Below are positions 1-59,848 of a stretch of DNA of 64,000 bases, one piece after another; position 1 is the stretch's first letter; the number at the start of each line of letters is the position of its first letter. The stretch is from Chlorokybus atmophyticus (Eukaryota > Plantae > Mesostigma and Chlorokybus algae): the NCBI GenBank assembly GCA_009103225.1, contig RHPI01001327.1, forward strand, positions 248,001 through 312,000, given 5' to 3'. The notes under the pieces are model-generated. The model ran no database searches. It saw only the letters and a list, made by a program, of their open reading frames with translations, and was not told where the DNA came from. Both the position numbers and the translations under genes were made by a program.

Positions 1-1
1 C

Positions 2-2131
2 ATGGGGGTTGTTATAATAGCGCTTCTGCCGGTGGTTCACGCAGTGGCCGGGCATCCCACCTGGGCGCAGGGCAAGGAATCGTTTTCCATTCGGAAACGT
101 GAGATTTTTCATGACGCTTTGAATGTAGTGTTAGGGGATGTGAAGCGGGCGAGTTGAGAAGGTCTGCAGCTCATCGACCCGAATGGCATCGAGCGTCGTG
201 TGTTTCCCGCGCTTGCCAACTACATCAGCGATTTGCAGGTAGTGGGCATGAATGGTTGTAACCGGATGCAGCCTGCCAGCAAACAGTGCATGGAGGATGT
301 TGTCAGTAAAACATCTGAGTTTGTCGTGTTGTAGGAGACTGCCACACTCGCACGCACTGTGTCGGGCAACCAAACACGACATCCTTGCAATGTTTGTCTC
401 GTCACCAAATCAGATCTGTTGGAGATGGATGAGGACTGGGAATTGAGAATCGAGGCCTTCTACACACCAGCAATACGTCAGCTGCGGGCGGACCTGCATA
501 GCGGTGTTAGGAATGCACGCCAGACAGCCAAGGCTTTCAAAGAGCAGCACTCCATGCATGTCGAGGAGGTAATGGTCAAGTTATCGGCATTCGTGAGGAT
601 GAATGGCTTTCCGTGAAACCAGGCAATGTGGTTTGGCAACAGAATGCACTGTGGGGTTGGCGATAGTCGCGGGTGCCGGGAGCTGACTGCTACTCTCGTC
701 TTGCCCCTGACGCAATGCATGTGCTGGGAGGCATCATTGACCACCTGCTTGCTGCTGTGTACGACGCCGCGAAGGAACGAATGCGTCCATCTACGAGACA
801 GATTCTGCAGGCCAGGCACGTCTTTGGTGTTGCTTTTGTGTTGAACACAAAAGCCAATGACACGTGCTCACGTGCAGATGTGCACAGGCTGAATGCATGC
901 AAGGCGACTCTGCGGGTTTCGCACTTCAAGGCACCCACAAGCACAGTAGATTTCTTCCTGTCCGACCACTGACTTCTTCCTGTCCGACCACTCCTTTCAG
1001 GTGGTGGAGAAAGTGGCGGTGCTGCAGCTGTTGCCGGTCCTCGCAGACGGTTTGCTGCTCGACAGTGAGGGCAACGATGTCTTCACCATTGCTGCCGCAT
1101 TGCTTGCCCAGTGGAACAAGAAGTTGATCAAGGCGCATAAACACACATGAGAGACCCTGACCACAACCGACAACGAGCAGGCTGCCTTCAAAGCTGCAGT
1201 GTTGCATCCGCTACTGTCGTCATATTCTGCACAGAAGTCATGTTGGAAGATTGAGAAGATGCATCAGCTCACTCATTTTGGGCCGGCAATTGTCAGCAGT
1301 GGACACCCAGATTGGTTCAGCGCCAACCGTATGGAGCAGACGCACGCCCAAAATATCAAACGATGGGCGCGTGGTGGCAACAACCGGGACTACCAGGCAC
1401 GTATCTTGAAGGCATGGAGCTGTGCGGAATATGTGAGAGAGGATGGCATGGTCGTGGATCCCGAGATGCGCTCGGTCATGGCGCAGGCGCGGCAGCAGTG
1501 CTGTAATGTCATGGAAAAGACGGACAAGTTGCTACGGATGGATGTGCTGACAAGGAGGGAGTTCAGCCCGTACTGGAGCGGATCTGCGCGTAGCCGCCAA
1601 GTCGCCTTGAAGACTCCATTCGCCGACAAGCTGCCTGCCACCCTGGACAGCTGGTTGAGGACTCCTCGGAGGGAACAACTGGAGTGGGCCGACGGGTGGC
1701 GTGCTGTTTGCGTGGTGGACGGAGGCGCAGCGGTGTACATGACATCAGGAGTCACCATGGCGCGCGCAACTGGGATGTTCCATGGGCGGCCTTGGTTCTC
1801 TACACTTGAGTTGGAAGGTGATGAGGACGGTGTGAACGTGACGTGGTGGGCTCAGGCACTCCTTTTTCTGCGCGTGGTGGTGTGGGGTGGTAGCGGCGAG
1901 CGCGTGTGGAAGGAGGTCGTGTTTGTCCGCTGGTACACGAAGCTGGATGTGACGAGAGACACAAAGTGCATCGCTCTGGAATGGGAAAAGCGTCGAGGCG
2001 GTCCACATCTCGATGTCGTGACTCTGGAGCAAGTAAAAGGCATTGTCCAGCTGCTCCCCATGTTTGACAAGGACAGCGCCCGTGTACAAGAGGGCAAATA
2101 TTGGGTGAACGTTCACTGCACTTCCACGTGA
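2..2131 (+). pseudogene. Plavaka-family DNA transposase (5' end outside window), decayed
   Basis: Frame 2 reads IFHDALNVVLGDVKRAS*EGLQLIDPNGIERRVFPALANYISDLQ. After a GT-AG intron (239-334) it continues ETATLART...HPCNVCLV, then PDAMHVLGGIIDHLL and KMHQLTHFGPAIVSSGHPDWFSANRMEQTHAQNIKRWARGGNNR, ending in a VVFVRWY domain. These match the Plavaka motif order (fP.La.yi.D..E, CxxC, PD.lH, K.H.l.H, E..H...K). Lesions: TGA 155-157, a 22-nt tandem duplication at 952-992, TGA 1148-1150. Confidence 0.85.
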
Positions 2132-2334
2132 CACATGTACTTGTCTCATTACTCTGAGTTTGGAGCATATCAGTCAGTTAGGCATTGCTGATCGTATGGT
2201 AAGACTTTTGCATGTGGACATGTACAATACCGGGCAGCTGTCACTGCACAACTGTCACAACAATCGAATGTGCCATGCAACATTCAACAATTAGTCCGCC
2301 GTGTGGCATTAAGCATCAGTACAGTGCACCACAC

Positions 2335-4059
2335 TCAAGCCTCATAGTTCCATGACACAGGAGGGTAGTCACAGCGCATATCCATTATTTCAAGCATGAG
2401 ACGCCCTATGCACTCCGCCATTGCGGGAGGAACTGCGTTCGCTATGGAAACGGCCGAGGTCATCCATCGCACTCCCAGCGCTGTTTGCCACGCAGCAATG
2501 CCGCCCCTGTTGCTTGGAAGGCCATAGACCGGGTACATCTGCTGTGGCGCGTCTGATGTCACGATTGTCTTCTTCGCGCTAGCGGACAGGTGCGGCGATA
2601 GCACTCCAACTGCCTTGCCCGTGTGCGAGCAGCGTGCTGGTGGGGTAGCTACCATTGGCTGTGTCTCAAACAGACGGTGTCGGAAAGTTGATAGGCCAAA
2701 CATCGTGCCACAAAGGGACAGATTGGGTCTAAATGAGGAAGCTGCTCCTGGCACATTGTTAATCACAAACTTGACCTGGCTTGCAAGCAGTAGACGTCGG
2801 ACGAGCGGTATTATATCCTGGTGTCTCCAGGATGTGCCATGTGCCGCTCGTTGAGGTGCTGGGATAGCACCAAAATAGGCCTGGCATGGTGGACTGGCCC
2901 AGATGAGCTCGTACTCGCTCAGCTCTCCTGCACTCAGGGTGCATACATCGCGGTGTATGAAGGGGCAGCGGGTACTCAGAAGAGGGACTTATGTCCATCC
3001 TGGTCACGTCAAAGCCTGCGTGGTATAGACCGACACTGGCACCGCCACCGCCGCAGAATAGGTCGAGTGCCTTTGGTCTGCGTGTGCGTCCCAGCTTGTT
3101 GTCAAATGGCGTGTATGTGGTCAAGGCTGGCCGTGGTGCTGGCCAGGGTCTAACAATGATGCCGTCCGGGCTTACTTTGCGACTGACGTTCTCCCCTGCG
3201 GCGCGCAGACCATGGCGTGCCCCGTCAACTGATGTGTACGCAAATACGTTGTGCCCTTTGAAGTTGATGGTTTGTGGTCGATCACCGTCATCGAATACTA
3301 TACGGTGCTGCCCTGCAAAGACATTTTCCATTGCACCATGCATATATGATGCGTCCTCAATCTCGCACGCCACGAAGCGATGCTGACCTGACGCTTGCTT
3401 GAATGATTCCACAACGCCCGCATACCATTCCCCATCCAGCGGCCAATGCACCATGACACTCACACCGATCAGCTGCTCGCATCCCAACTTAACTGCGTTC
3501 CGCAGCCGATGCAGTGCGCTGTCCAACGGTCGATGGTCTGCCTCCTCTACAGCGGCCAGGGGATGGAACTGCCCACGCCCACACCGTGCAAGACTGCTCT
3601 GAATGCGACAACATCTTCAACATGCATGAAATAAGCATACGCCCAACATGCAGTGATACGTTGCGGTCCACTCTTGTAGATTACCTCCACAGCATCCACC
3701 ACCTGTCCACTAACCACATGTCCCGGTGTTGTTCATGTGAAGAAGCGCATGGGTTCCCCTCGCCACTCGAAGCATGAGCGCGAGCACGATTCGCACACGC
3801 ACTGCACGCAATGGAAAAACTCGGGTTCCTTGCACAGCACTTGGCCGAGGCGGCAGCCAAACACGTCGACATTGTGTGTGGTGTGATGCCAGCAAGCAGC
3901 ACTAAAACCGTGGCACACTGTCTGCACTCGCTGGCATTCGGTCAAGTGTGCTCGCATTTGCTGCCTACGGCCATTGGCACATACGTACGCATTGCATTGT
4001 GGGCACACCAAGCATGGTCTCCTAGGTGAGGGTGATTCAACTGCTGCCGCCGACATCAT
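2335..4059 (-). pseudogene. Cys-rich Zn finger + Tudor + phage/bacterial-type C5 DNA cytosine methyltransferase fusion
   Basis: Spliced model with introns 3684-3599 and 3387-3313. It reads CPQC...HLTEC, then the Tudor LIGVSVMVHWPLDGEWYAGVVESFKQASGQHRIVFDDGD. MTase motif I is ALDLFCGGGGASVG, motif IV is IWASPPCQ (about 2880-2900), motif VI appears as VINNVPG, motif VIII region is LCGTMFGLSTFRHRLFE, and the C-terminus is WMT...NAVPPAMAECIG. Lesions: TGA 3733-3735 and one extra C in the run at 2962-2965. Confidence 0.85.
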
Positions 4060-4199
4060 GCAAAATAGGAATCGGCACGGCTGCCCACAAACTGAGCGAG
4101 ACTTTAGGGTATGGGCATCAATTTAGGGTTGCCAGCTTACGAACCCTAAATGGGTCAAACTTCAAGTGAAGCACGACTGTACCTTATACGCTATTGCAA

Positions 4200-4260
4200 T
4201 ACCATGCATGGTACTACATCAACATGAATGGTACTCCATCTGTTAATGGTACTACAGTAC
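4200..4260. promoter_or_regulatory. Perfect 14-bp palindrome TACCATGCATGGTA plus repeated ATGGTACT upstream of the methyltransferase gene
   Basis: Palindrome at 4200-4213. ATGGTACT occurs three times between 4209 and about 4255. Confidence 0.45.
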
Positions 4261-4676
4261 AAGAATACTCGCATACTACCACGATTGTAGAGTAATACTG
4301 TGCTGTCATGCCATGGAACCCAGAGCGCTGTCCGAGTTTGTTGCTGTCAACCACGCTACAAACCAGCGAGGTATGCAAGCCGTGCACTGATTCATGCGCC
4401 GGGCAGTCATCATACACATGTACAGCAAATGCTTCTAACAACAGCAGATCTCTGGTGCACCATGCACCATGCTGCAACTATAGATGTACCTACATGGTTC
4501 ACAGGAAGCCAACACAAAACTACAATACATGCACAATTGGCATCAAGGCGGGGGCCAAATCACAGCCGACACGGTGGCGTCTTGCATCAGGCATGGCGAC
4601 CAAAACGGGTGAGGTTGCTTGCAGAATGGACACGCTTGTAGATTCTTTGATTTATTTGCCACAGTCTTCTGATGCG

Positions 4677-5552
4677 CTATGATGCAGACATGGCACATCG
4701 CTTTCTTGCAACATGGCGTCTCCCCATCCGCTGGGGGGGGGGTGGCTCTTCAATGCGACAAATCAGCACACATGGTGCACGCGGGTGTGCAAGCTGCCTC
4801 TGCCACCAAACTCTATTATCGCGTCGCAGGCGTAGCAATTCCCATCTGAATGGCGCAGCATAATGCTCCACTGCCTGCTCGATCACCTGACGCCCATCTG
4901 CCGCCATACACCACCTGCTGGTCTTGGTGGTCTCGTCCAGCATGCGTTTATCCAGGCCCTCGACATGGCTGTCGTCACTCGTGTACTCCCCCGCATCATT
5001 TTCTTCGAGCTTCCACAGAATCAGCTCGACATGCCGTTTAACATACAGCCACTGCCAGCCAAAGCATGCCAAGTACAGCTCGAATGGTTTTACTTGCCAC
5101 CCAATATGTTTGCTCAGGTAGTGGCACACATCTCGACCCGCATTAGTCGACATCAACAGGTACATCTGCTGCAGCAGGTCGAAGATCTGCTCCGCACATA
5201 GCTCTTGCACATTGCCGGGCTGCTGCGGCTGCAACAACACCATCATATCGAGGACGGCGAGGGGCAACAACGTACAACGGATGGCCATATCGTGTATGGG
5301 TTCCAACCACGGCCAATCCCCAGAGGTCTGTTCAACCCGCATTCTGCGCGTTTGCTCCCACTTATTGCAAACTTTCGTCACCCACCTCGAGGCATGCCGC
5401 ATGCGATGATGCAGCGCGTCTTGGGCGTATTGTAGGGTGATCAACTCCTTTGCACTACGTGTCAGCCCCTGAAAGCGTCTGCGCGTCGGTGCTTTGAGCT
5501 TAGATAGCTCGTGCCGCACCGGCTGTCTCTCTGGACGATGCTGAGCAGCCAC
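4677..5552 (-). CDS. Orphan 291-aa protein inside the putative transposon
   Basis: Uninterrupted ATG-initiated ORF with protein-like composition; no recognisable motif. Confidence 0.55.
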   Translation of the reverse strand: MAAQHRPERQPVRHELSKLKAPTRRRFQGLTRSAKELITLQYAQDALHHRMRHASRWVTKVCNKWEQTRRMRVEQTSGDWPWLEPIHDMAIRCTLLPLAVLDMMVLLQPQQPGNVQELCAEQIFDLLQQMYLLMSTNAGRDVCHYLSKHIGWQVKPFELYLACFGWQWLYVKRHVELILWKLEENDAGEYTSDDSHVEGLDKRMLDETTKTSRWCMAADGRQVIEQAVEHYAAPFRWELLRLRRDNRVWWQRQLAHPRAPCVLICRIEEPPPPQRMGRRHVARKRCAMSAS

Positions 5553-5686
5553 TTAACGCTGTAAACCCGCCTATGCCTACTCAGGACACACAGTCAGCCC
5601 CAGTGAGGCTTCAAGGCGCTGTGCTTCTTCTAATGTTGTAAAGATGCCTCACCTTTCCCTTTTTGGTCCTGTCAGCGTCCTTTATT

Positions 5687-8543
5687 CTAACAACCTTCCT
5701 TTTTTTTTTTGTCACCCTGCACATCCTGGCAGGCGCTCTCCGTGGCACTGTTACTCAGGGGAGGTAAGGCGTTATCTTCTTGTTCCACAGCCTTGCGCTT
5801 GTTGGTTGCCTCCCGTTCCTCCACGACCTCATGTTGCTTCATGAGGTCGAGCATGAAGCCTTTGTCTTTCAGCGCAGCTTTCAGGACACCTCGATCAATC
5901 TCTTTACCAACAAGACAGGCTGGGATCAATGTGGCAAGCTTAGAGGGAGAGGGCGAGCTACAGCTGCTTCTTGATGGAAATGCCTCCGGATGGTCAGAGT
6001 GCGGTGGCAAGTAAGTCTCCGCGGCAGGAAGGGAGGGTGCTGAATTGGGATTGCGAGCATGTGAATGTGGTTGAGGGAAGGCAGGATGTGCAGAACACTC
6101 GGCTACTTCTTGCCTAGAACACGAAGGCGAGGCCTGAGGCGTTTGTGCAGCACTCTGGGTCACTGCCGGTGGTAGCGGGGAAATGGCAACGCCATTCCGC
6201 CACTCTCCGATTAGGTGTGTTACCTCCAGTGGCACTTTACGCATAGGCCACGACCACTGTTCGGTGCTTGCAGGCTTGAGGAGCTAAAAGTGTGCTTCTG
6301 GCTCATTAGGAGCAGTGTTGCCCACCACCAGGATTGAGTTGGGGGCTTCTTTTTTTCCAACCCAAACTGCGCTGCCGGGCCATGGCACCCACTCCCCATG
6401 CTCGCGCTGAACGGTCACGCAGCCAATCAACAAGCCCAGCTTGTGAGCAAACATAGTCATCTGCAGGTGCTCGACGTACACATCTTTTCTCCGCACGATC
6501 TGTCGCACCTTGGCCATGGCTAGGTCAATGTTGCAGTTGACATCAGCCAACATGGTCGTAGGCAGTTTGTCGTAATACTGCGCCATCTCTCCCGCGGCAC
6601 CAGTGGCTCTGCAGAAGTCTAGGATTCTGCTCGCCACGCCTGCATCGACAGCCTTGGCGGTGATTTTGCAGAGAGTGTGCCCCCTGCCGTCGTCGTCCAT
6701 GGTGTCCAGCATGGCCCAAAATCTGCTCGAGCTGGGGCACTTGTGATCATCCAAGACACTTTGCGCTATGGATGGCCTGGCGCGAAATACACAATGGTAG
6801 AAGCAATTACCATCCGTTGGCGCATTGAAGTGGTCCCATGAGGCGAGCTGGCCACCTAGCATGACTACTGGCCGTATGCGGGTTGCGGCCAGCTCCTTTG
6901 ATGACTCGCTGGCAGGTGGTGACCCTTGCTGCATGCGCATACAACACTCACATGGTGTGTCCAACTGTGGACGGCAAGAGTCACAGTGACTGATAAGTAC
7001 CTGAGTGTAGGGCAGACTGCCGGCTTCAACTTGCAGCGGGTGGGGTAAGGTAGGTGCAGAAGCCACATCGGTTGTTGCATTGTGCTGTGGTCTCGCCGGT
7101 GGCGGCAAGAAGGATTGTTGCCCCGCAATCACCGGTGCTGCTCGTGGAGGAGATGGCAGTGCACGAAGGACTGGTGCCGCGGAAGGTGGTTGCGCTCTGG
7201 CTGGGAGGGGAGCAGGAGCTGCAGGTGAGACCACTTGTGCATGCAGCAAGGGGGGCTGTATACAGGACCCAGGATAAGATGGCTCACAATGTTGCAAAGG
7301 ACGAATATAAGCTTATGCAGTGCCTGACGCATTGTTACCAAGGCACGAGCATAAAAGACAGCGACTTACCTCAATGGCCCGTGGGCTGCATGGAGCAGGG
7401 GAAGCCATGGGGGCTGACAAGGTGGTATTGGCTGCACTCTCCCCGCCACCCTCGATGGCAGACTCGTCACGGAGCTCTTGAGCCATGGGCACATCATGCG
7501 CCACTGCCCCAATGGACATGTCGGGATTCAACAGGCCAACATGCATGTTAAACTGATGCCGCATTGCCGCCGCGCCCATCAGCAAGTGGGATTGAAGGAC
7601 CAGTTGATGGGATTGAATCCAGGCTTGCATAGGAGCTCCAACAGGACCTAGTGCACTGTGGTGCTGTCAACCAATCACATGTGGGTTAGCTGCATGCTTG
7701 CGACACTGCAATTGCAATAGTCAACTGCGTCACATCGTCATCAGTTGGTTGCTTTGAACAGTCACCTGCGGCATTGCTGGTTGATGCACTATTGGTTGAA
7801 TGCCGGACGAATGGCCACGCGCTCCTGTGCTCAAACCCAGCCTACTTCGTTCGGCACGCGCGCGCGACTTCGCACGCTCACGCACATCCTAGCATGCAAA
7901 GGTAGGCATGCATTGGAGCCGACATTGCAGTCAACATGCACAGCGAGATTGGCAACAACATACCGCCGCCCAGCTCTGTCTATCTGCTCTTGCTTCCGCA
8001 ATGTCGGCTTGACTGTAGGGTGGGTATGGGTGAATAGTGGAGGCCTGCAGCCACGCTACATATATCACATGGACTGCGCTAAAAAACAAATTGCTCTTGC
8101 AAGGAAATGCATGTGACTGTTGAGCGTACCTCTGCATTCCTTTGTGCTTGTTCCCACAGCCGCAATTGGTCCCACATGGTTCTGACAAGGGGCTCTAAGG
8201 ACTGCAGCTTCTGATCCACTCCTTGTTGCAGAAAGCGAGCCACCAAGCGGCTCTCTGTATGAAGATGGTCTTTAATGGCTTGCCTGCTGGTTTGTCCAAT
8301 GTTGGTGATGCATGTTGGACAGCCCCATTGCTGACGCCTGCCATGATCCATTACGTGGCAACCGGTAGTAGCTGGCTTCGCTGCTTGAACTCTTACGACC
8401 ACAACTTCTCGCAAGATGTGCCACGCCGCCGCCGCCGCCGCCTCCGACTCCTGGTCCTCCGCCTCCTAGTCGGACTCAGGCCCTAAAGCCTGACATTCGA
8501 CCCGTCATCGACCTGGTGCCCCTGCGTGCCATCATCCGGCCAT
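5687..8543 (-). pseudogene. Multi-exon gene: N-terminal C2H2-like finger, Pro-rich linker, OTU-like cysteine protease, low-complexity tail
   Basis: ATG at 8543 is in frame with the CPTC...HLH exon (8414-8130). The OTU-type catalytic motif HFNAPTDGNCFYHCVF and a distal AHF*LL are present. ORFs 6284-7297 and 5687-6244 share a frame and are split only by TAG 6284-6286. Further in-frame stops at 8532-8534, 8505-8507 and 8466-8468. Confidence 0.65.
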
Positions 8544-8602
8544 CAATGAAGCGTGTTTGGGTGAGTGCACACTAACTCCCATTTGGGCTGATCGAGCAAT
8601 GC

Positions 8603-8766
8603 CTCTGTCGTACCATGGATGGTACGACAGAGCCATTGTACGGCAATCGCTGAGGTTGGACGAGAGATGCCTCTGTCGTATCATAAATGTTACGACACAA
8701 CCATTGTTACCAATGGTTGTACGAAGCATGGATGGCACGAATGCATAAGTCGTACCATCAACCATA
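8603..8766. repeat. Cluster of TCGTACCAT-based inverted repeats in the divergent promoter region
   Basis: Perfect 14-bp arms CTCTGTCGTACCAT-gg-ATGGTACGACAGAG at 8603-8632. A degenerate second copy lies at about 8670-8700, with further half-sites to about 8766. Confidence 0.7.
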
Positions 8767-10439
8767 GGAGCAAGGACGCACTACAAGTGCGACTCTAGTG
8801 CGGGACTCTAGACGTTCAAAACCGCCTCATTTTCGTTTTCGCGCCTCTTACATTCGGGCGGGCCAACCGGCGGCGGCAGCGTTGGAGGCGGCAGCGCCAC
8901 TATCAGCTAAACAGGCGGCACCCGACTGTCAATTGGAGAGATGCCTCGTGGTCCATCCGTAAGTGCACCTCGTCGTGGAGGTCGGCGCCAGTTGTCCACA
9001 TTGCCCCTAGTGTTCAACCAGGCAACCGTCGCCAACCAATTGCAGAAAGACCCCGCGCCAACGCCCAGCATATCACAACAACTCCACCTGACACCGCAGT
9101 CGCAAGGGCAAGCTAGACTGCATGCGTTCTTGATGCACTGTGCACGTTGCTTCTTGCTCAACTTCTAACTTGGATGCTTGCTTCTTGCATGACTAGCACA
9201 GTGACTCACTGCATGTGTTCTGGATACACTGTGCACGTTGTTCTTCTTTTGCAACTGTGAGGGTTGCATCTTTCATGGCTGGCAGCATGACTTATGTGGT
9301 TGTGCTTGCAGAGGGTCGATTGGAACCCCCAACCCAAACGCATTTGGCCGTGACGTGGCAACCTCGTCCGTCAGCAACCCTTCCCCAAGCAAGTGGAATA
9401 TTGGCAACGAGGTAAGCAATGTGTGACACTGTGACACTGTGTGTATGTGTGTAACGAATTGTTCTTCTGTGAACAGCATTTGTGAGATGCCGTCGTTGAA
9501 ATCATAAACGGCCACTGGGTAGAGAGCCACGTTTATCCCAAGGAGGATACTATTTGTAACGTCATGTGTCAGGTGCTGTGAATGCTTCGTGACCGCACTG
9601 CACCGTGACACTGACCAACCTGCCCGTGACAGGTGGTTGGCTTCGACCATGACGACGAGGCCGATGCGGCCAAGTTCTATGAGGTGTACTGGACTCCCAA
9701 AGAGTGCCCCTTCCACTGGAGTGTCGCCCTGAAGAAAGCTACGCAGGTCCGGTCTGAGAACGTCACCAAGATCAAGCATGTCCTTGAGAAGGAGTACAAG
9801 TGGACACTGCTTAACAGCAACAAGCGCAAGTGAGTTGGGTCCCTCACCACCATGTCTACTATGCAACACTGCCTTCTGACTAAGCCTCCATACACACGTA
9901 CTCATCTCGCCTATTGTAACCGATTCAATCAGGCACATCGACGCCCTAATAGACCCCGAGACCCAAAAAGTGTTGAGGATATTCTTGTATCCGGTCAGCT
10001 TGCCCTGTGGATAAGAATAGCCGCGAGAAGATTCAGGCGCGAGAAGGTTCCAGTCGAGAAAGGTCCAGGCGAGGATTTCAGTCGAGAAGGTTCCAGGCGC
10101 GGAGTCGAGTCCGCAGTCTGGAGACTTCCAGGCGCTGTAGAAGAAACGTTGTAGCTCGATGGTTACGTCATGTATGGCGCGTGTCATAGCTTGTTGGAAA
10201 GCTCTTGAAAGTAGCTACGTGGTGCAACTTATAGCGCAGGAATCGGTTGAGTGTAGAAGTCGTGGTGGCTTCTAGAGTAGACAGGTGCAGAACTGGCGGG
10301 TATAAAAGCCCGCGGTGTGACTTTGTTGTAATCCTTAGAAAGCCTTTTTAGATCAGCCTTGTGTGTATGCTCTGGTAGAGTGTGTGTACTTGTGCTTGCA
10401 CCAACTCCATGCATGGTCAGCAGTGTCCGAATCTCAACA

Positions 10440-10452
10440 GGTTATGGGCCCA
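10440..10452 (+). other. Primer-binding site of the half-tRNA(iMet) type
   Basis: GGTTATGGGCCCA directly after the 5' LTR, the PBS type known from Drosophila copia-like half-tRNA-primed elements. The same site is at 16915-16927 on the minus strand in copy 2. Confidence 0.85.
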
Positions 10453-10552
10453 CACTACGCTGGTCTAGCAAGTGTCTAGAGGCGTGATAACGGCAATAGG
10501 CTAGGCAAGGAGTTCTAGCTAAGTCTTGTGAGGTTGGGTTGAGTCCTGGAAG

Positions 10553-11410
10553 ATGGCAACCAACTACGACAAGGTGACCGTGGAGCCTTTGGACGTGGAC
10601 AACTACAACACATGGAGCGTGCGCATGAAGATGTTGCTGGTGCACAAAGACCTATGGGAGTACGTGGATACGGAGGAAGCGGATCCCATGAGGCAGAGCA
10701 CGGTGTGGAAGCAACATAGTGGGAGAGCGCTTGCCCTGATCGGTCTCAACGTGAAGGACCATCACTTGGTGTTGGTGGACGGCTGCAAGACTGCACGAGA
10801 AGCTTGGAAGAAGTTGGCATCGCACTTCAAGGCGAAGAATAGCGCTAGCAAGGTGCAGCTGAAGAGAGAGCTTGCTGGGTTGAAGAAGCAAGGAGCAGCG
10901 GAGCCTATTACCAAGTATGTGTCGCGTGCACGAGAGTTGCAGAAGGACCTTCAAGGCGTTGGCTATGAGGTGAAGGAGTCCGAGTTGGTGTGGCAAGTAC
11001 TGTCTGGGTTGCCTGAAGACTATGACACGGTGATCACGATCTTGGAGGGCTTGGAGGCAGAACCCACGGTGGACGAGGTGGTTCCAAGATTGCTGCAGGT
11101 GGAATCAAGGCTCGCGAAGAAGCATGAGGAAGGCCCGGAGGCGACGGCTTTCTCAGCGACTTCAGGAAGAGGTACTGATCGTTTTCAGCATGGGTCTGGG
11201 CGTTTCAGTGGTGATGGTGGCGGTGGTAGTGGTGGTGGAGCGTCCAGGAGTGACAGGGTCTGCTACTATTGCGGGAAGAAGGGCCACATTAGGGTGCATT
11301 GCTCGATGAGGAAGCAGCACGAAGAGGAGCGTGGTGGAGAGAAGCATCATGCCATGACGGGACGTATTACAAGAGACGCCTATTGCCTTTCATGCAACAA
11401 CGAACGGTGA
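10553..11410 (+). CDS. gag: Copia Gag (UBN2-like core, CCHC zinc knuckle)
   Basis: 285-aa ORF with NYNTWSVRMKMLLVHKDLW, VLSGLPEDYDTVIT and CYYCGKKGHIRVHC. Confidence 0.93.
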   Translation: MATNYDKVTVEPLDVDNYNTWSVRMKMLLVHKDLWEYVDTEEADPMRQSTVWKQHSGRALALIGLNVKDHHLVLVDGCKTAREAWKKLASHFKAKNSASKVQLKRELAGLKKQGAAEPITKYVSRARELQKDLQGVGYEVKESELVWQVLSGLPEDYDTVITILEGLEAEPTVDEVVPRLLQVESRLAKKHEEGPEATAFSATSGRGTDRFQHGSGRFSGDGGGGSGGGASRSDRVCYYCGKKGHIRVHCSMRKQHEEERGGEKHHAMTGRITRDAYCLSCNNER

Positions 11411-12227
11411 GGCAGCTGGCTGGGTGCTGGACTCGGGTTGCACGAGGCATATGACGGGTGATCGTGAGAAGTTGGCAAAGTACAAGGTCTTGGAGACACG
11501 TATGAAGGTGAAGTTCGGCAAGACGGAGGTGTTCGCGGTTGGTGTAGGAGAAGCCAAAATCCTGTCCCAGGTTGGAGGAATGACGAGGCAAGTGTTGTTG
11601 AGAGAGGTTTCGTATGTCCCAGGGCTAGAGGTTAGCCTATTCTCTGTGCGCATCGCGGCGAGAGTTGGTGCTGTGACAGTGTTTAGTGGGGACATAGGAA
11701 GGATAGTGCTGCGTGGTGTCACAGAGTTGGTTGGCATCAACGTTGGAGGGCTCTACATCATTAAGGAGGTCAAGGGTGCGGACATGCAGAAGAAGACCAA
11801 GGTGGAGGTGTCCAAGTCAGCACCGGTTGTGAAGAAGATGAAGAAGAAGGCCAAGGTCGAGCCTGCTACTCATAAGGGAGCGGGAGCTCAAAAGAAGGTT
11901 ACGAAGAGCGTGTCACATGCGAGTGGTGGAGTCATTCCATGTGTGGAGGTTGCTGGTGGTGTCAAGAAGGCTGAAGGTGCAGTTCCGGAGCCCGTGGGAG
12001 CCAAAGGAGGCGTTGGCATCAGCAAAGACAAGAAGGAGAAGCATGGTGGTGGTGGTGTGCAGGACGTTGCCGAGAGTGAGCACGTGGGAGCACATGCAAA
12101 TGACCATGAGAGTTGCAATAAGGGTGTGCAAGTGAAGAGCTTCAAGGAGGCGCTCATGAGAGGTGCGGGAAGTGTTTTCAAGATGGTTGGAAGAGCAAAG
12201 GATGGCGTGGGAGTTCGTCGCGCATAA
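11358..12227 (+). CDS. Copia aspartic protease ORF in the +1 frame relative to gag, followed by a Lys/Val-rich tail; pol truncated
   Basis: Reads IAFHATTNGEAAGWVLDSGCTRHMTG, ends its recognisable part at GGLYIIKE, and has no integrase DDE, RT YVDD or RNase H motif before the 3' LTR. Confidence 0.88.
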   Translation, partial: RDVLQETPIAFHATTNGEAAGWVLDSGCTRHMTGDREKLAKYKVLETRMKVKFGKTEVFAVGVGEAKILSQVGGMTRQVLLREVSYVPGLEVSLFSVRIAARVGAVTVFSGDIGRIVLRGVTELVGINVGGLYIIKEVKGADMQKKTKVEVSKSAPVVKKMKKKAKVEPATHKGAGAQKKVTKSVSHASGGVIPCVEVAGGVKKAEGAVPEPVGAKGGVGISKDKKEKHGGGGVQDVAESEHVGAHANDHESCNKGVQVKSFKEALMRGAGSVFKMVGRAKDGVGVRRA

Positions 12228-13908
12228 GTACGCAAGGAGTTGGCATCGAAGGTGTTAAAGGCCAAGCTGCCCGCGTGGGAGTGTTGAGGATATTCTTGTA
12301 TCCGGTCAGCTTGCCCTGTGGATAAGAATAGCCGCGAGAAGATTCAAGCGCGAGAAGGTGCCAGTTGAGAAAGGTTCAGGCGAGGATTTCAGTCGAGAAG
12401 GTTCCAGGCGCGGAGTCGAGTCCGGAGTCTAGAGACTTCCAGGCGCTGTAGAAGAAACGTTGTAGCTCGATGGTTACGTCATTGTATGGCGCGTGTCATA
12501 GCTTTTTGGAAAGCTCTTGAAAGTAGCTACGTGGTGCAACTTAGAGCACAGGAATCGGTTGATCGTAGAAGTCGTGGTGGCTTCTAGAGTAGACAGGTGC
12601 AGAACTGGCGGGTATAAAAGCCCGCGGTGTGACTTTGTTGTAATCCTTAGAAAGCCTTATTGGATCAGCCTTGTGTGTATGCTCTGGTAGAGTGTGTGTA
12701 CTTGTGCTTGCACCAACTCCATGCATGGTCAGTAGTGTCCGAATCTCAACAAAAAGCCTAGATGCGCAACGCGCTCCAAAGTAAGTCACAGGCACTATTC
12801 TAGCCTGGTGCAGGCTCAACTTGAACTATCTATTTCGTGGCTAATGTCTTGTCGGTATGACTGTCGCAGACAAGTCATGGCGGAGATTTGAGGTGACCGA
12901 CATTGCAGACCCGGAGCGGAGGAGATACATCCATGTATGGGGCAATCCCATAATCTGGCAAATGATTGTGCAATGCTGGTCTTACGCCGTCACTACACCT
13001 GGTCGCCGGCAGCTGACAGTCAACCACCTCGCATACCTGTTGCTTACGGTGAGCACTCTGAACTCCAGCATTAGAAATCCAGGAATGCTGTAGCCCCAAA
13101 CTACAGGCTTGCAGACGCGTTGCAGTGAATAGTGGCTTTCGATGCCACTAAGACATGCCTGTAAACTACGCAGGTGGAGCGCATCCTAAAGGGCAAGGAT
13201 GGAGACCCTCTCCTAGCTGCCAGCATAGACACACATGAAGAGTACCTCAGCGAAATCAACACCATGATCATGTCAATGAAGCGGGAGATGAGGCAACGGT
13301 ACGCAGCCCTCCAGCCATTCACCCTTGTGAAACGCCGCACTGCATCTTGTGTCGAATACCTGAAAGATCCCAATCGGCGCCGGCCGCAAGAGACAGCAGC
13401 TCGTGACCCGCTCGCTGAGGCAGAAGCGGCATTTGATCGGCTGGCACAACCGTTTGAGGAGGAAGAGCAAGCTCCGGCGTCTCCTCCACAGGCCCCAGTG
13501 CGTGGTGCTTTGTTCCGTAATGACGAGCAAAGCGATGATGGAGAGGAGCTGTAGCGCAGTTGGTAGTCCGTTTAGCTGGTAGTGTACATAGCTACAAGGC
13601 TCTTGTAACTGAGTGTTGTGCATCTTAAACCAGCTCAGTCAATCGTCATTATGCTCATGCACATTCATACTTGCATCCCTATGATATACAACAGAAACAG
13701 CATCTGAATCACATAATCGAACTACAAGCCTTGGCAAGTGACTGAGAGACACTGTACACATTTCAGGTACATGTACACAGCACAGGCACATAACAATGCT
13801 GGAAGTCAGTGACAATCGCGTGTAGTCAAGCTATGCAAATACATATGAGGACAGTTGGGCATTAATCACCTTCATTTGTTAAAGAATGCATTATTTTGTC
13901 GATAATTA

Positions 13909-14280: not shown

Positions 14281-15140
14281 ACAGGTGGCATGAGCCACGA
14301 CAGTCCAAATTAGTGTCCTCAGGTGCACGGCCGTTGCCAATATTTAGTCGGCCGGCAGGGAAAACATATTGCGACGTCCTCGGCAGCTGCCCACTCAGCT
14401 GGGGAATTATCTCAGGGATTTATTAGGGTCGGTTACCGGTCCCACAGCCAAGGACCGGCCAAATTAAGCCCATACCGGTCAACGCGCGCATAGGGCACCG
14501 CTGCCGGCCCCACAGGTCGCGTTGCCACGATAGGCAGGTCGCGCCCAGCCGCGCCGACTGAACTGGTCAGTTCGGCGCAACTGCCATTAGGCAATTCGCG
14601 ACCCATCGATGATGGCACTTATTGTTGATATTCGGACACTACTGACCATGCATGGAGTTGGTGCAAGCATAAGTACACACACTCTACCAGAGCATACACA
14701 CAAGGCTGATCCAAAAGGCTTTCTAAGGATTACAACAAAGCCACACCGCGGGCTTTTATACCCGCCAGCTCTGCACCTGTCTACTCTAGAAGCTACCACG
14801 ACTTCTACACTCAACCGATTCCTGCGCTCTAAGTTGCACCACGTAGCTACTTTTAAAAGCTTTGCAACAAGCTATGACACGCGCCATACAATGACGACCG
14901 AGCTACAACGTTTCTTCTACAGCGCCTGGAAGTCTCCAGACGCCGGACTCGACTTCGCGCCTGGAACCTTCTTGACTGAAGTCCTCGCCTGGACCTTTCT
15001 CGACTGGCACCTTCTCGCGCCTGAATCTTCTCGCGGCTATTCTTATCCGCAGGGCAAGCTGACCGGATACAAGAATATCCTCAACACTCCCACACGGGCA
15101 GCTTGGCCTTTAACACCTTCGATGCCAACTCCTTGCGTAC

Positions 15141-16010
15141 TTATGCGCGACGAACTCCCACGCCATCCTTTGCTCTTCCAACCATCTTGAAGACACTTCT
15201 AGCACCTCTCATGAGCGCCTCCTTGAAGCTCTTTACTTGCACACCCTTATTGCAACTCTCATGGTCATTTGCATGTGCTCCCACGTGCTCACTCTCAGCA
15301 ACGTCCTGCACACCACCACCACCATGCTTCTCCTTCTTGTCCTTACTGATGCCAACGCCTCCTTTGGCTCGCACGGGCTCCAGAACTGCACCTTCAGCCT
15401 TCTTGACACCACCAGCAACCTCCACACGTGGAATCACTCCACCACTCGCATGTGACACGCTCTTCGTCACCTTCTCTTGAGCTCCCGCTCCCTTATAAGT
15501 AACAGGCTCGACCTTGGCCTTCTTCTTCATCTTCTTCACAACCGGTGCTGACTTGGACACCTCCACCTTGGTCTTCTTGTGCATGTCCGCACCCTTGACC
15601 TCCTTAATGATGTAGAGCCCTCCAACGTTGATGCCAACCAACTCTGTGACACCACGCAGCACTATCCTTCCTATGTCCCCACTAAACACTGTCACAGCAC
15701 CAACTCTCGCCGCGATGCGCACAGAGAATAGGCTAACCTCTAGCCCTGGGACATACAAAACCTCTCTCAACAACACTTGCCTCGTCATTCCTCCAACCTG
15801 GGATAGGATCTTCGCTTCTCCTACACCAACTGCGAGCACCTCCGTCTTGCCGAACTTCACGTTGATTGGCTTCTCCAAGACCTTGTACTTTGCCAACTTC
15901 TCACGATCACCCGTCATATGCCTCGTGCAACCCGAGTCCAGCACCCAGCCAGCTGCCTCACCGTTCGTTGTTGCATGAAAGGCAATAGGCGTCTCTTGTA
16001 ATACGTCCCG
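15141..16010 (-). CDS. Copia protease ORF, copy 2 (+1 frame, pol truncated)
   Basis: WVLDSGCTRHMTG; the ORF has the same length and stop position as in copy 1. Confidence 0.85.
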   Translation of the reverse strand, partial: RDVLQETPIAFHATTNGEAAGWVLDSGCTRHMTGDREKLAKYKVLEKPINVKFGKTEVLAVGVGEAKILSQVGGMTRQVLLREVLYVPGLEVSLFSVRIAARVGAVTVFSGDIGRIVLRGVTELVGINVGGLYIIKEVKGADMHKKTKVEVSKSAPVVKKMKKKAKVEPVTYKGAGAQEKVTKSVSHASGGVIPRVEVAGGVKKAEGAVLEPVRAKGGVGISKDKKEKHGGGGVQDVAESEHVGAHANDHESCNKGVQVKSFKEALMRGARSVFKMVGRAKDGVGVRRA

Positions 16011-16815
16011 TCATGGCATGATGCTTCTCTCCACCACGCTCCTCTTCGTGCTGCTTCCTCATCGAGCAATGCACCCTAATGTGGCCCTTCTTCCCGCAAT
16101 AGTAGCAGACCCTGTCACTCCTGGACGCTTCACCACCACTACCACCGCCACCATCACCACTGAAACGCCCAGACCCATGCTGAAAACGATCAGTACCTCT
16201 TCCTGAAGTCGCTGAGAAAGCCGTCGCCTCCGGGCCTTCCTCATGCTTCTTCGCGAGCCTTGATTCCACCTGCAGCAATCTTGGAACCACCTCGTCCACC
16301 GTGGGTTCTGCCTCCAAGCCCTCCAAGATCGTGATCACCGTGTCATAGTCTTCAGGCAACCCAGACAGTACTTGCCACACCAACTCGGACTCCTTCACCT
16401 CATAGCCAACGCCTTGAAGGTCCTTCTGCAACTCTCGTGCACGCGACACATACTTGGTAATAGGCTCCGCTGCTCCTTGCTTCTTCAACCCAGCAAGCTC
16501 TCTCTTCAGCTGCACCTTGCTAGCGCTATTCTTCGCCTTGAAGTGCGATGCCAACTTCTTCCAAGCTTCTCGTGCAGTCTTGCAGCCGTCCACCAACACC
16601 AAGTGATGGTCCTTCACGTTGAGACCGATCAGGGCAAGCGCTCTCCCACTTTGTTGCTTCCACACCGTGCTCTGCCTCATGGGATCCGCTTCCTCCGTAT
16701 CCACGTACTCCCATAGGTCTTTGTGCACCAGCAACATCTTCATGCGCACGCTCCATGTGTTGTAGTTGTCCACGTCCAAAGGCTCCACGGTCACCTTGTC
16801 GTAGTTGGTTGCCAT
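15958..16815 (-). CDS. gag: Copia Gag, copy 2
   Basis: Differs from copy 1 Gag at two residues seen by eye (KQH/KQQ, GGGAS/GGEAS). Confidence 0.93.
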   Translation of the reverse strand: MATNYDKVTVEPLDVDNYNTWSVRMKMLLVHKDLWEYVDTEEADPMRQSTVWKQQSGRALALIGLNVKDHHLVLVDGCKTAREAWKKLASHFKAKNSASKVQLKRELAGLKKQGAAEPITKYVSRARELQKDLQGVGYEVKESELVWQVLSGLPEDYDTVITILEGLEAEPTVDEVVPRLLQVESRLAKKHEEGPEATAFSATSGRGTDRFQHGSGRFSGDGGGGSGGEASRSDRVCYYCGKKGHIRVHCSMRKQHEEERGGEKHHAMTGRITRDAYCLSCNNER

Positions 16816-19800
16816 CTTCCAGGACTCACCCAACCTCACAAGACTTAGCTAGAACTCCTTGCCTAGCCTACTGCCGTTATCACGCCTCTAGACACTTGCT
16901 AGACCAGCGTAGTGTGGGCCCATAACCTGTTGAGATTCGGACACTACTGACCATGCATGGAGTTGGTGCAAGCACAAGTACACACACTCTACCAGAGCAT
17001 ACACACAAGGCTGATCCAAAAGGCTTCTAAGGATTACAACAAAGTCACACGGCGGGCTTTTATACCCGCCAGTTCTGCACCTGTCTACTCTAGAAGCCAC
17101 CACGACTTCTACACTCAACCGATTCCTGCGCTATAAGTTGCACCACGTAGCTACTTTCAAGAGCTTTCCAACAAGCTATGACACGCGCCATACAATGACG
17201 TAACCACCGAGCTACAACGTTTCTTCTACAGCGCCTGGAAGTCTCCAGACTCCGGACTCGACTCCGCGCGTGGAACCTTCTCGACTGAAGTCCTCGCCTG
17301 GACCTTTCTCGACTGGCACCTTCTCGCGCCTGAATCTTCTCGCGGCTATTCTTATCCACAGGGCAAGCTGACCGGATACAAGAATATCCTCAACACTTAT
17401 GACCATTTACGATGTTACTGGATCGAGAAACAACGACCGCGGAATTCGTGTGCAAGGTAGGAATTGAACCCGGGTCTCAAGCTCTAATACCAATGTCACA
17501 GCCCACTTGACCACAAAAGACTTGGTGCTTTTATGGTCGATGTGTGGTAAAATAATGTACCTTCCCGTTACATTCCCCCCCACTTAAGAACGCTGACGTC
17601 CTCGGCAGCTGCCCGCTCAGCTGGGGAACTACCCAAGGGGTTTGTTAGGGTCGGTCATCGGCCCCACAGCCAAGGACCGGCCAATTTAGGCTTGAACCGG
17701 TCAGCGCGCGCATAGCGCGCCGGTACTGGCCCCACAGGTCGCGTCTCCGCGATAGGCAGGTCGCGCCCTGCCGCGCCAACTGAACTGGTCAGTTCGGCGC
17801 GACTGCCATTAGGCAAGTCGCGACCCATCGATGATGGCACTTATAAAGTGACCATTTACGATGTTATTGGATCGAGAAACAACGACCGCGGAATTCGTGT
17901 GCAAGGCAGGAATCGAACTCGGGTCTCAAGCTCCGATGACCAATATCACAACCCACTTGACCACAAAAGACTTGGTGCTTTTATGGTCGATTTGTGGTTA
18001 CTTATTGTACCTTCCCGTTACAGACACGGCGGAAACCGCGCTAACACTGAAGCTGCGTCGTCAAGGAGTGCCCAACTTGAATACCTTGGTGGGAGCACCA
18101 CTGAAGACTCGCCAAGGGTGGATGTTCAAGCGGAACGACATCATGAAGTAAATGGCGCCTCCTCACTAAACATTACATGGCATTTGCTGTATTAGTTGCA
18201 ACTAGGTTCCCCAGCATAAACCCGAATAGGTTCATGATTCATGCATGTTTTGCAAATAAAAGCGCCTGCCCCACACAAAGCCAAACACATAGTAACAATA
18301 TGTGCGACATATAACATTAAAAGCGAAAAACATCATCTGTAATCAAATCTGCCGCACAACTACACGGCTACAACTGATAACAACAAAAATTTAAAGTAAC
18401 CTCGCTACTAAGGCGGAGGACTACCCTCCTCCGACTCCTCCTCGTGCTCCGGCTCCGAGGGGTCCACCTCCACATCCGGCGGATCCACCTCCTCCAGGAT
18501 CTCCTCGATCTCTTCCTACCGCCGCTGCACTCCTCGTCACCTACAACGTCATGCTGCTTCATCGTCCTCCGATGAAGGCGGAGACTCAAATGTCTCTGCT
18601 TCTTCGGGGGGCTTCTGGCCGCGGTCGAGCGCCCGCTGCCGGCGACGTGCTTTCGCGACGCACTGACGCTCTTTGCGGATGCGGCGCTTCTCTTTGAGCT
18701 TCGCTTTCATGATGCGACGGCGGTTGACAACAGTGTTGATGTGCCGTGGGTCATGGGCTTGCCGCTTGTGAAAGTCGACGGTGCCGGGGTTCAAGGAATC
18801 CCTGCGGAAGACCTTGCTCAGGTCACTGTCATTCTTTATGATTGTGACCCGACGACCATGAAGAGCAAGCAGGTTCCTGCATCATAACATATTATCATTG
18901 ACACAACATGTCAAGCATCAATCATAAAACGCCTGCCACCAAAAACAAGCACACAACTCAACTTACATGTCCTGCATGTATTTGGTGACAAACATCTCCC
19001 CAGCTTCCTGAAGTGCATTCAAGGCTTCAGCCCTCCAGCGGAAGGTGGGTGTGTGAAACACGTCAGCTGCAACACCGCTTCAGTATATATGCAATAAAAC
19101 CAATTCAATTACAAATTACATATCGTATTTCCTCGTCAGCAAGAAGAGCAATAACACATCCGCGCACAACTTTGCAAAAAGACAACTTAGGGATGATCGG
19201 AGCGGTGCTCTTCTGCATCTGCCGAATTTCGCGCAGAGGTTGCGTAACGCGTGGCCTGCATGACCACCCAAATTACCAAAACGTACATATCAAAACATAT
19301 GTTAGGACAATTGCTTACTTGCGGCGAGGACGCGCGGGAGGCGCAACCGGCAAGGCTTGATCATGTGCGACAATTGCACCTGCGCCAGCGGGTGCAGCGG
19401 CGGCAATAACAAACCGCCCACCAGGACCCCGAGGACGCGGGTAAGCACCATCGACGCGACGACTGCACTGCTTCGTGCGTGCCATCGCCAATTCCTACAA
19501 ACCTGCCCCAAACTACTCTCAAGCACTATAATACACAACAGCAGCGACGCAACAACAACTCAGCAGAGCTCAAAGACGTTTCAGAAATATAAATGCGCCA
19601 CACGACCCAAAAGAAACACATATGAGCCGCCCAAACGTCGAGGCGGTTTCGCCTGCACAATCGGTTGCCAATTGGCCTACGAAACTGTCTGTGGAGCCGT
19701 CACCATCCTAACCCTAAAAGTGCCATTTCACAACCAGGATATGCCGATAACCGTACCAAGTAAACACGATCGATGCTAATGTGCATGACCGCGGTTAACA

Positions 19801-40602: not shown

Positions 40603-41452
40603 CGGCGCCTTGCTCTCTTTGCGGTACCCTGATGTATATGTTAATCTGCTAGGTTTCCTTCAACTTACACGATCTATGCACTCTATACGAAGAGTGTTAC
40701 AATGAGATCACTCATTGACAAGGGGTGATTGCAAGCTCAGTTGGTTAGGTTAGCAAATGGGTTGACAATTTGAGTACATAGCCATGCCGCATGCAGCGTT
40801 GAAAGCTTGTAGCTTGCATAATAAGCTTGCAACTGCTAGGATGAATTGCTTTAGCATGTTGGTTGTAAACAAACGCTTTATAAACCATGACGCCCACGTG
40901 CTTAAACAGCTTGTTCACTATGATATGCGTGCCCGCATGTGTGTGAAGTGCAAGTGTGTGTACAAAGATGGAGTGCTGATAAGACCGCAGGCATGCGGTC
41001 ATAAGCATGAGACATGCATGTTGTCATGCACAGAATGCTCTTGGAGATATGTACACGCCGCAAGCAAACGGTAGGCAGCAGTCATAATGCTATGTCACTA
41101 CCCGGCTAGGTAATTCTAACACGCTAAGCTACCACTACTTGGCTCCCCGTTAGTCATGCATGCATGTATGTTCCATTATTTGGCAGCAGCAGTCATGCAC
41201 GTATGTGTGAAGAATTGCAACCCTAAGTTGCTGACTTATGTTTGCTTACAAGCGTACACTCAACTGGTCAAACAGCCACACATAGTATTGGTGGCTTGTA
41301 CATATCGTTTACACGTTTTATACAAGAGTTGAGCATATAAAATTATCTCAAGCAATGGTTCCATTCAAAGGCTGAATTATTAATATGAATATAGATTACA
41401 AGCGAATGCAAAAAGACTGTTGATTAACTATATGAAACTGCATTTATAAGAA

Positions 41453-42370
<918 letters not shown>

Positions 42371-42994
42371 GGGCAATCCCACAATGAAGTATATATACAT
42401 ATAATCATTTACATACATGATTGATGCATTTGTTAGTTAATGGTTATCATGCATGTCGCAGGCTCGCACGCCTGCACACTATACATGTGGCAATTTTGTC
42501 AGCTGTGGTTGTATGTTGGCTGTGTATGGGGTTATTGCATTTGTTTTTTATGCTATACCCTTTGTGATCAACATATCGATCTTATTCACAAGTGATGTGC
42601 TCGTGCAGTTTTCGCTCATAAAGTATATCCTTATAGCCCGGGAGGTTAATTGCGCAAATACGGCGCTCGTCAGGCTCCAGTATCACTTATACTGGAGCCC
42701 GTGCTTATACAGTATAAGTATACTGTATAAGCAAGCGCACAAGCGTGCATTGTCCTTGTGCGACTGCGCACTTAACCCTAAGACCCGGGCCTGCAGCCGG
42801 TTCGCATGACAGAATCGACTGCAACCGGGCTCACCAGTAAAGCCCGTCTCCAGCCCAAGCGTTGCGGGCGGCGCCTACGTGGGTCTCTTTGCCGTCGTCG
42901 CTGCCGCCGGGGTCGCCGTCGCTGTCCGCCGCCGCGGCAGGGGTGATCGATTACTTGTTGGCCAGTAGCCTGAGCGTACAAGCGTTCTTCCAAG

Positions 42995-44256
<1,262 letters not shown>

Positions 44257-59500: not shown

Positions 59501-59848
59501 GTGTACCTTGTGGAAATCCAGGCACCTGAGAACGCCTTGGGCGGTATCTATGGTGTCCTGAATCAAAAGCGTGGCCATGTATTTGAGGAAATGCAGCGTC
59601 CCGGCACCCCCATCTACAACATCAAGGCATACCTGCCTGTCACAGAGTCTTTTGGCTTCACAAGCACCCTGCGCGCTGCGACATCAGGACAGGCCTTCCC
59701 CCAGTGTGTGTTCGATCACTGGGACGTGATGAACAGCGATCCCCTTGATTCAACAACCACCTCCGGTCAGCTGGTGCTGGATGTGCGCAAGCGCAAGGGC
59801 ATCAAGCCAACGGTACAGCCCCTCGCTGAGTATGAGGACAAGTTGTAA
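56557..59848 (+). CDS. EEF2: Eukaryotic translation elongation factor 2
   Basis: ATG 56557-56559, an intron, then VKFTIEEIR...[50 protein letters not shown], the diphthamide loop [11 protein letters not shown], and the end LAEYEDKL*. Confidence 0.99.

Follow-up and report, generated by a model that had tools for sequence, protein, structure and literature searches.

A compact C5 cytosine methyltransferase gene with a Tudor domain beside a Plavaka-type transposase in Chlorokybus atmophyticus

The window analysed here, 64,000 nucleotides of Chlorokybus atmophyticus DNA (contig RHPI01001327.1, positions 248,001 to 312,000), opens within what is likely a decayed copy of a DNA transposon of the Plavaka type, itself likely multi-copy. 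The transposase runs on the plus strand to a stop at 2131 and faces, 203 bp away, the stop (2335) of a convergent minus-strand cargo gene, which encodes in order a Cys/His domain, a Tudor domain and a compact C5 cytosine methyltransferase, in a model of about 520 codons with predicted introns (Table 1). We regard this architecture and the linkage of the two genes as solid. Both had been put forward in an original prediction made from the letters alone, and that the methyltransferase travels with the transposase is now also seen in sequence other than that of the window, as a contig from a public sequencing run (X1) bridges the two genes.

We propose, with somewhat better than even confidence, that the cargo gene is kept for a cytosine methyltransferase tethered through its Tudor, which would bind nucleosomes carrying H3K4me1 and methylate nearby cytosines. 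The likely target would be the element's own copies, since silent transgenes and transposons of Chlamydomonas bear H3K4me1 (PMC6952782). The window copy itself is filed as a broken homologue of the C5 methyltransferases and not as an active member.

Layout of the element and its sequence in public runs

Translated with an X at the stop, positions 2-238 match PF18759 (Plavaka) with 37.7 bits (E 1.8e-9, cut-off 26.3); scored separately, the two halves of this stretch reach only E 0.13. The last transposase exon resembles basidiomycete clusters (atlas score 0.97, with recognition below the threshold of the tool), and 19% of the members of the first cluster carry DUF6830, a domain that we take to be associated with Plavaka; a longer-protein search with this exon gave 0 of 2855. 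A feature of the CMCT group is a C(2)C and an H(3-4)H that follow the second D and precede the last E (PMC12730594), and the window transposase has this feature, the strings SDLQE, CNVC, HQLTH and RMEQ following one another in that order, with the roles of the residues assigned by eye. Three stops (155-157, 664-666 and 1148-1150) and a duplication of 22 nucleotides near 952 interrupt the gene; an intronic position of the duplication was considered and rejected, as it shifts a coding frame.

The original prediction had called this copy dead, and the three cargo lesions that it named, a TGA in exon 1, an extra base (2962) and an AAC at motif VI of the methyltransferase, are all real. Its list was nevertheless incomplete, as the transposase stops and duplication and a Gly-to-Arg change in motif II of the methyltransferase (3001) had been overlooked. 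The motifs by which it had recognised the finger, the Tudor and the methyltransferase were all found on the minus strand: CPQC...HLTEC, VHWPLDGEWY...IVFDDGD, LDLFCGGGG, SPPCQ, NNV, LCGTMFGL..RHRLFE and WMT..NAVPP. The Cys/His domain of exon 1 had neither a Pfam nor a PDB match. Alternative phase-0 donors and acceptors are available for intron 1.

Table 1. Coordinates of the transposon and cargo features in the window
Feature	Position	Strand	Remarks
Plavaka (CMCT group) transposase, 5' part outside window	2..2131	+	predicted introns 239-334, 569-642
Compact C5 cytosine methyltransferase (phrog_363 type)	2335..3085	-	motif positions, see text
Tudor, RDM15/PDS5/MSH6 type, split by intron 2	3256..3472	-	7DE9, E 2e-5
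Predicted intron 2, 75 nucleotides, in frame, stop-free	3313..3387	-	splits Tudor
Predicted intron 1, 86 nucleotides, GT-AG, phase 0	3599..3684	-	joins two frames
Exon 1, Cys/His-rich domain, CxxC-x15-HxxxC and further Cys/His	3685..4059	-	in-frame TGA 3735-3733
Open frame, 291 codons, probable cargo	4677..5552	-	no Pfam/NCBIfam match; covered by the same public runs
Probable cargo gene, OTU-protease-like motif DGNCFYHC...HF	5687..7312	-	TAG at 6286-6284; no Pfam match
Candidate right end	8586..8800	+	a trio of related palindromic repeats (8586-8759) followed by TAGTG, whose last base is 8800

The element probably stretches to 8800, where the TAGTG of the candidate right end suits the CMCT group, whose ends are CA..TG (PMC12730594). 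Its left end and the 5' part of the transposase lie beyond the edge of the window, and with them the first catalytic Asp, paired terminal repeats and the target-site duplication of 2-5 bp expected of this group fall outside the view; a second full copy with transposase and cargo is absent from the rest of the 64-kb window. Of the 11 copies of the heptamer ATGGTAC in the window, three stand upstream of the cargo gene at 4208-4252 and three more within the candidate subterminal repeats at 8610-8758; the total does not exceed chance (6 of 100 shuffles). Telomere-like boxes, TAGGGTT and AACCCTA, form an inverted pair at 4121-4151, at a distance of 60-90 bases upstream from the start codon of the cargo gene.

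We placed the contigs of four public runs on positions 1-6000; three of the four are DNA runs (X1 to X3) from two samples, X1 and X2 being one sample. Each DNA run covers all 30 bins of this region, and contig 3 of X1 spans 1163-3688 in one piece, bridging the end of the transposase, the methyltransferase and the Tudor, with 52 letters different from the window and without the extra base. In all three DNA runs the stops at 157 and 664 become Trp and Gln codons; run alleles also restore the motif II Gly, and the duplication near 952 is absent in X1 and X2 and present in X3. The differences are polar: the window has T or A where the run has C or G at 65, 74 and 72 places (X1 to X3), and the reverse holds at 14, 17 and 19 (binomial p 1e-8 to 1e-9). 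Even divergence would be expected of two strains compared at a single locus; we therefore take the copy in the window to be decayed and the runs to represent the family majority. Less than 95% likeness to the window was found for 31 of the 122 placed contigs of X2 and 127 of the 351 of X3, the diverged pieces lying over the transposase, the methyltransferase end and the Tudor. C-to-T sites, read from 40 of the 149 differences, fall at CG (8), CC (6), CA (5) and CT (4), 23 in all; their context was dropped as a clue to the target of the enzyme, not being clearly CG-specific.

These data bear on two alternatives. A cargo gene that was once useful and was then carried along inactive by an amplified subfamily is, in our estimate, quite unlikely: loss of the motif VI Glu (see below) is possibly family-wide and the window copy is broken several times over, as such a passenger would be, but the runs restore the reading frame of the cargo gene and its conserved Gly and do away with two of the transposase stops, and a 5-nucleotide insertion of X1 to X3 lies within predicted intron 1, while the indels of 9 and 3 nucleotides in coding stretches keep the frame. 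We consider it very improbable that chance has put the Tudor next to the methyltransferase, or the cargo next to the transposase, for example through an insertion near a gene of the host or of an endogenous virus. Neither an end pair nor a target-site duplication is visible in the window, and close kin of the enzyme stand without a transposase on a gene-dense marine contig (L097); however, the Tudor and motif I share one open frame even when unspliced (2759-3616), one contig bridges both genes, the polarity of the changes is uniform across 1-6000 and a contig of X2 joins window positions 7492-7516 to 1447.

The compact methyltransferase and its relatives

Read along the minus strand, the enzyme has motif I at 3067, the catalytic Cys at 2886-2884, motif VI as NNV at 2760-2752, the RHR of motif VIII at 2682 and motif X at 2439; the FxGxG of motif I, the PC of motif IV, the RxR of motif VIII and motif X are intact. 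Its catalytic piece has 323 matches among 50,697 phage records (E down to 4e-25, identity 34-37%), and the sole family that it matches is phrog_363 (E 1e-9); the Pfam family DNA_methylase gave no match to the piece alone. Searched against the PDB, the profile of the family finds HaeIII at 2.5e-9, DNMT2 at 5e-6 and MET1/DNMT1 at 6e-4 or weaker, with DNMT3 absent from the best 60 of its 74 matches. The claim that this is a compact enzyme, distinct from DNMT1, DNMT3 and CMT, is therefore borne out by phage matches and by the far weaker likeness to DNMT structures, in a comparison that leaves aside DNMT4/5/6 and ChloroDNMT and in which the trees hold no eukaryotic DNMT rows.

The model of a relative, P0002 (pLDDT 92), adopts the C5 methyltransferase fold, with Foldseek matches to DNMT3A (E 5e-10) and M.HaeIII (E 6e-10); the alignment behind this model included the window piece, and the fold shown is that of the relative. 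The best viral match is A0A481Z4Z4 of Pithovirus LCPAC201 at 36% identity, which places members of the compact family in giant viruses as well.

A HMMER search gave 2197 representatives, 150 of them listed; the domain scan covered 26 of these 150, both top-ranked and longer proteins. In three of the 26 an MBD sits within the variable region (scores of 27.5, 33.7 and 20.7 bits against a cut-off of 21), and one has a zf-CW at its N-terminus; because of these fusions we consider that the family pairs with chromatin domains repeatedly. The top-ranked relative, P0012, matches the profile of these MBDs at E 1e-5. P0012, P0013, P0018, P0022 and P0023 are compact phage-type methyltransferases that bear one or the other of these readers, and the C-terminal string [DN]Y[PD]P occurs in five of 296 sequences, the window enzyme and the four relatives in which the scan found an MBD or zf-CW. 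In a tree of 45 rows the window enzyme falls in a group of seven with the MBD-insert and zf-CW relatives (86/95), beside 11 long-insert proteins (joint support 82/68); the root of this tree is arbitrary, its bootstrap is unsettled and no starred branch holds the window. Earlier trees had set the window with P0001 and L097 (0.963; 87/89), a placement that was dropped when more rows moved it to the MBD-insert group. A home-made MBD profile missed the long inserts of the P0001- and P0016-type proteins (best E 0.17), whose resemblance to MBD was judged by eye.

The window enzyme has no MBD insert, and its variable region, from motif VIII to motif X, counts 82 residues against a family median of 69. 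Since the bridging X1 contig likewise shows no gap of the size of the insert, the absence of the MBD is not a lesion of the window copy.

The original prediction had the enzyme acquired horizontally and likened it to orphan Dcm-like enzymes of phages and bacteria. A phage-type enzyme it is; a direct donor among phages or bacteria is not established, because the closest relatives already bear eukaryotic readers, the MBD and zf-CW, and a step through a eukaryotic virus or a mobile element is at least as likely. Searches with peptide patterns specific to the window turned up no close relative among viral and metagenome contigs, nor did searches with the P0001 and L097 enzymes among viral contigs, and the literature search found no characterised member of the family.

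Other members of the family were met in diverse settings. L097:1484-3067 is a long-insert member on a gene-dense marine contig with genes of the TM7S3/TM198 and small multidrug-resistance families, which by our reading is eukaryote-like or giant-virus-like. On another marine metagenome contig (L158:52-2700) the same compact methyltransferase lies in a frame behind one that closes with a weak zinc knuckle (E 0.04), possibly a retroelement capture. P0014, P0015 and P0035, of 410-450 residues, hold two compact units in tandem, and the enzyme of Gordonia phage Yakult (L161) adjoins genes for DNA polymerase I, dCMP deaminase, Cas4 and a RecA-like protein.

The Tudor domain and the proposed mechanism

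The best PDB match of the Tudor is 7DE9, the RDM15 Tudor in complex with H3K4me1 (PMC8184781), and its atlas lead is the PTM/DIR17 Tudor (0.84). With the predicted splicing, W, Y, F, D and D at offsets 0, 7, 25, 27 and 29 align with W616, Y623, Y641, D643 and D645 of RDM15, those beyond Y641 being placed through the numbering of the paper (PMC8184781). Between the first and the third cage residue there are 27 GT-AG pairs, nine of them in frame, and intron 2 alone gives the spacing of RDM15, 25 residues from the Trp to the third cage residue. The earlier assignment of this Tudor to the subtype of plant MSH6 and PDS5 readers thus stands as RDM15/PDS5 type with the cage in register, and the likeness suggests that it would bind H3K4me1 as RDM15 does.

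In the mechanism that we propose, splicing would join the Cys/His domain, the Tudor and the methyltransferase into one protein of about 520 residues, and the Tudor would bind H3K4me1 in the manner of RDM15. With its short variable region and no MBD insert, the enzyme would have little sequence specificity of its own; the target would therefore be supplied by the reader, that is by the Tudor, perhaps together with the Cys/His domain, and the element would benefit by setting its own chromatin state.

Several observations weigh against this proposal. A Tudor-fused relative was found neither among the 150 matches nor among 1780 longer candidates, and none of 160 related loci holds a transposase or a Tudor. 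No spliced read or contig appeared among the four public runs, and intron 2, being in frame, could be read through; in the fourth run (X4, RNA by guess) a piece of 153 nucleotides barely overlaps the donor of intron 2 and is too short to count. The window reads DGDRPQTINF in the region that contacts H3R2, with RPQ where the Glu of RDM15 that contacts Arg2 (E647) is expected, so that E647 and Q654 are not clearly kept, the second half of the Tudor having no PDB alignment. As for the runs, only about half of the summed depth of X3 lacks the extra base and none of it shows the deletion at 952; a run may moreover be the window's own source, and contig depth is no copy number.

A further point concerns motif VI, in which the window has Asn where all 145 aligned relatives have Glu (146 rows kept of 172); EN is likewise found in 135 of the 137 relatives with a PPC string among the 150 listed matches. 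The motif II Gly, replaced by Arg in the window, is found in 141 of the 145. The AAC codon is two changes away from a Glu codon, with a chance of about 0.02 x 0.003 at the divergence of the window copy, and as two substitutions are needed the loss of Glu is maybe a trait of the family and not decay of this copy. The Asn noted in the original prediction is thus real, while its reading as mere decay is probably not right. Asn or Asp may therefore stand in place of the motif VI Glu in most of the family, and the sampled subfamily, if already Glu-less, may be a weak writer.

An altered enzyme or a decoy would follow from such a trait: a whole young family with Asn or Asp in motif VI that docks on H3K4me1 and grips cytosines while transferring little methyl, and that would shield the element from host methyltransferases or alter base chemistry. 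The two changes behind the AAC codon speak for it, as do the retention of all other catalytic motifs, with motif II restored in the runs, the role of the motif VI Glu, which protonates N3 and holds the flipped base (PMC4802922), and the anti-silencing cargo known in VANDAL and TET-bearing elements (PMC12730594). The change is seen in none of the 145 relatives. We consider this explanation unlikely and prefer the Tudor-tethered writer.

On a wider scale, it is tempting to suggest, though we hold this only tentatively and at less than even confidence, that a so far unrecognised, eukaryote-adapted branch of compact phage-derived methyltransferases swapped its recognition region for interchangeable readers (an MBD within the variable region, a zf-CW or Tudor ahead of the enzyme) and travels in DNA transposons and retroelements and probably in giant viruses. 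The Plavaka family described here would then use its Tudor version as a histone-guided writer, or as a Glu-less decoy, to shape its own chromatin.

Neighbouring features and comparison with known systems

The longer of the two additional probable cargo frames (5687..7312) finds a viral L-protein fragment at a weak E of 0.17 and gives a model with a pLDDT of 45; its label as an OTU protease is our assumption from the motif. Beyond the element, two near-identical (97-98%) short long terminal repeat elements with gag- and protease-like frames, Copia-like by our reading, lie inverted at 9968-12756 and 14618-17398, and about 950 bases of GA repeat occupy 41440-42390. The window also holds the host genes RPS23 (43564-44256) and elongation factor 2 (57869-59848); an exon of the former matches its best PDB chains, which we take to be of land plants, at 84 of 88 residues and so puts the host in the green lineage.

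If our proposal is true, the cargo would be a minimal enzyme of the histone-read, DNA-write kind, borne by a DNA transposon, and it becomes testable how elements exploit, beyond evading, the cytosine methylation of their hosts. The branch to which this enzyme belongs scores poorly in standard domain searches and has acquired different readers several times; it would offer a natural experiment on the route by which methylases of foreign origin come to be guided by chromatin, as well as a small scaffold for directing methylation to chosen targets. Should the Glu be lost in all copies, the element would carry a pseudo-methyltransferase.

Methyltransferases in transposons are known. For a Plavaka element that carries a compact C5 enzyme joined to a Tudor, or for the branch with MBD inserts, no paper was found in a search that covered main texts and few subscription papers. 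A close arrangement is PAG2 among the giant Plavaka elements of Bostrychia (bioRxiv 10.1101/2025.02.11.637652), likewise a Plavaka element with several cargo genes, a DNA methylase and inverted-repeat arrays. There, in a red alga, the cargo is an N6-adenine methylase (PF01555) with a SET writer, whereas in the window, from the green lineage, it is a C5 enzyme with a Tudor reader. The TET/JBP-bearing Plavaka and other fungal DNA transposons (PMC12730594) share with the window a CMCT transposase, an epigenetic enzyme and CA..TG ends, but their cargo erases or oxidises 5-methylcytosine, whereas that of the window is of the writer type.

Mobile C5 methyltransferases are also found in the EpiLTRs of Cymbomonas and Euglena (bioRxiv 10.64898/2026.05.21.726589), which have a histone reader as well, and in the SymbioLINE and DIRS elements with DNMTs (PMC5890265). 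These are retrotransposons with DNMT4-sister, DNMT3 or orphan enzymes and a chromodomain, in contrast to the phrog_363 enzyme and Tudor of the window; DNA transposons with a DNMT in marine viruses are cited in PMC5890265. Orphan virus-derived DNMTs are described in PMC12344493 as generally lacking companion domains.

The N4CMT of bdelloid rotifers (PMC8885841) shares with the window the fusion of a prokaryote-type methyltransferase to a histone reader; it differs in its N4 chemistry and its chromodomain and is described as silencing transposons, whereas the C5 enzyme of the window resides within one. The phage enzymes of phrog_363, such as gp45 of Gordonia phage Yakult (217 residues), and that of Pithovirus LCPAC201 show the same motif order and short variable region; the phage enzymes are stand-alone and intronless and the aligned relatives keep the motif VI Glu, whereas the window enzyme is fused to a reader and has Asn. 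Finally, the Tudor of RDM15/PDS5C (7DE9; PMC8184781) agrees with that of the window in the register of Trp, Tyr and aromatic cage and of both Asp; in the window Tudor Tyr641 is replaced by Phe, Glu647 is not clearly kept and the fusion partner is a methyltransferase instead of PDS5 or MSH6.

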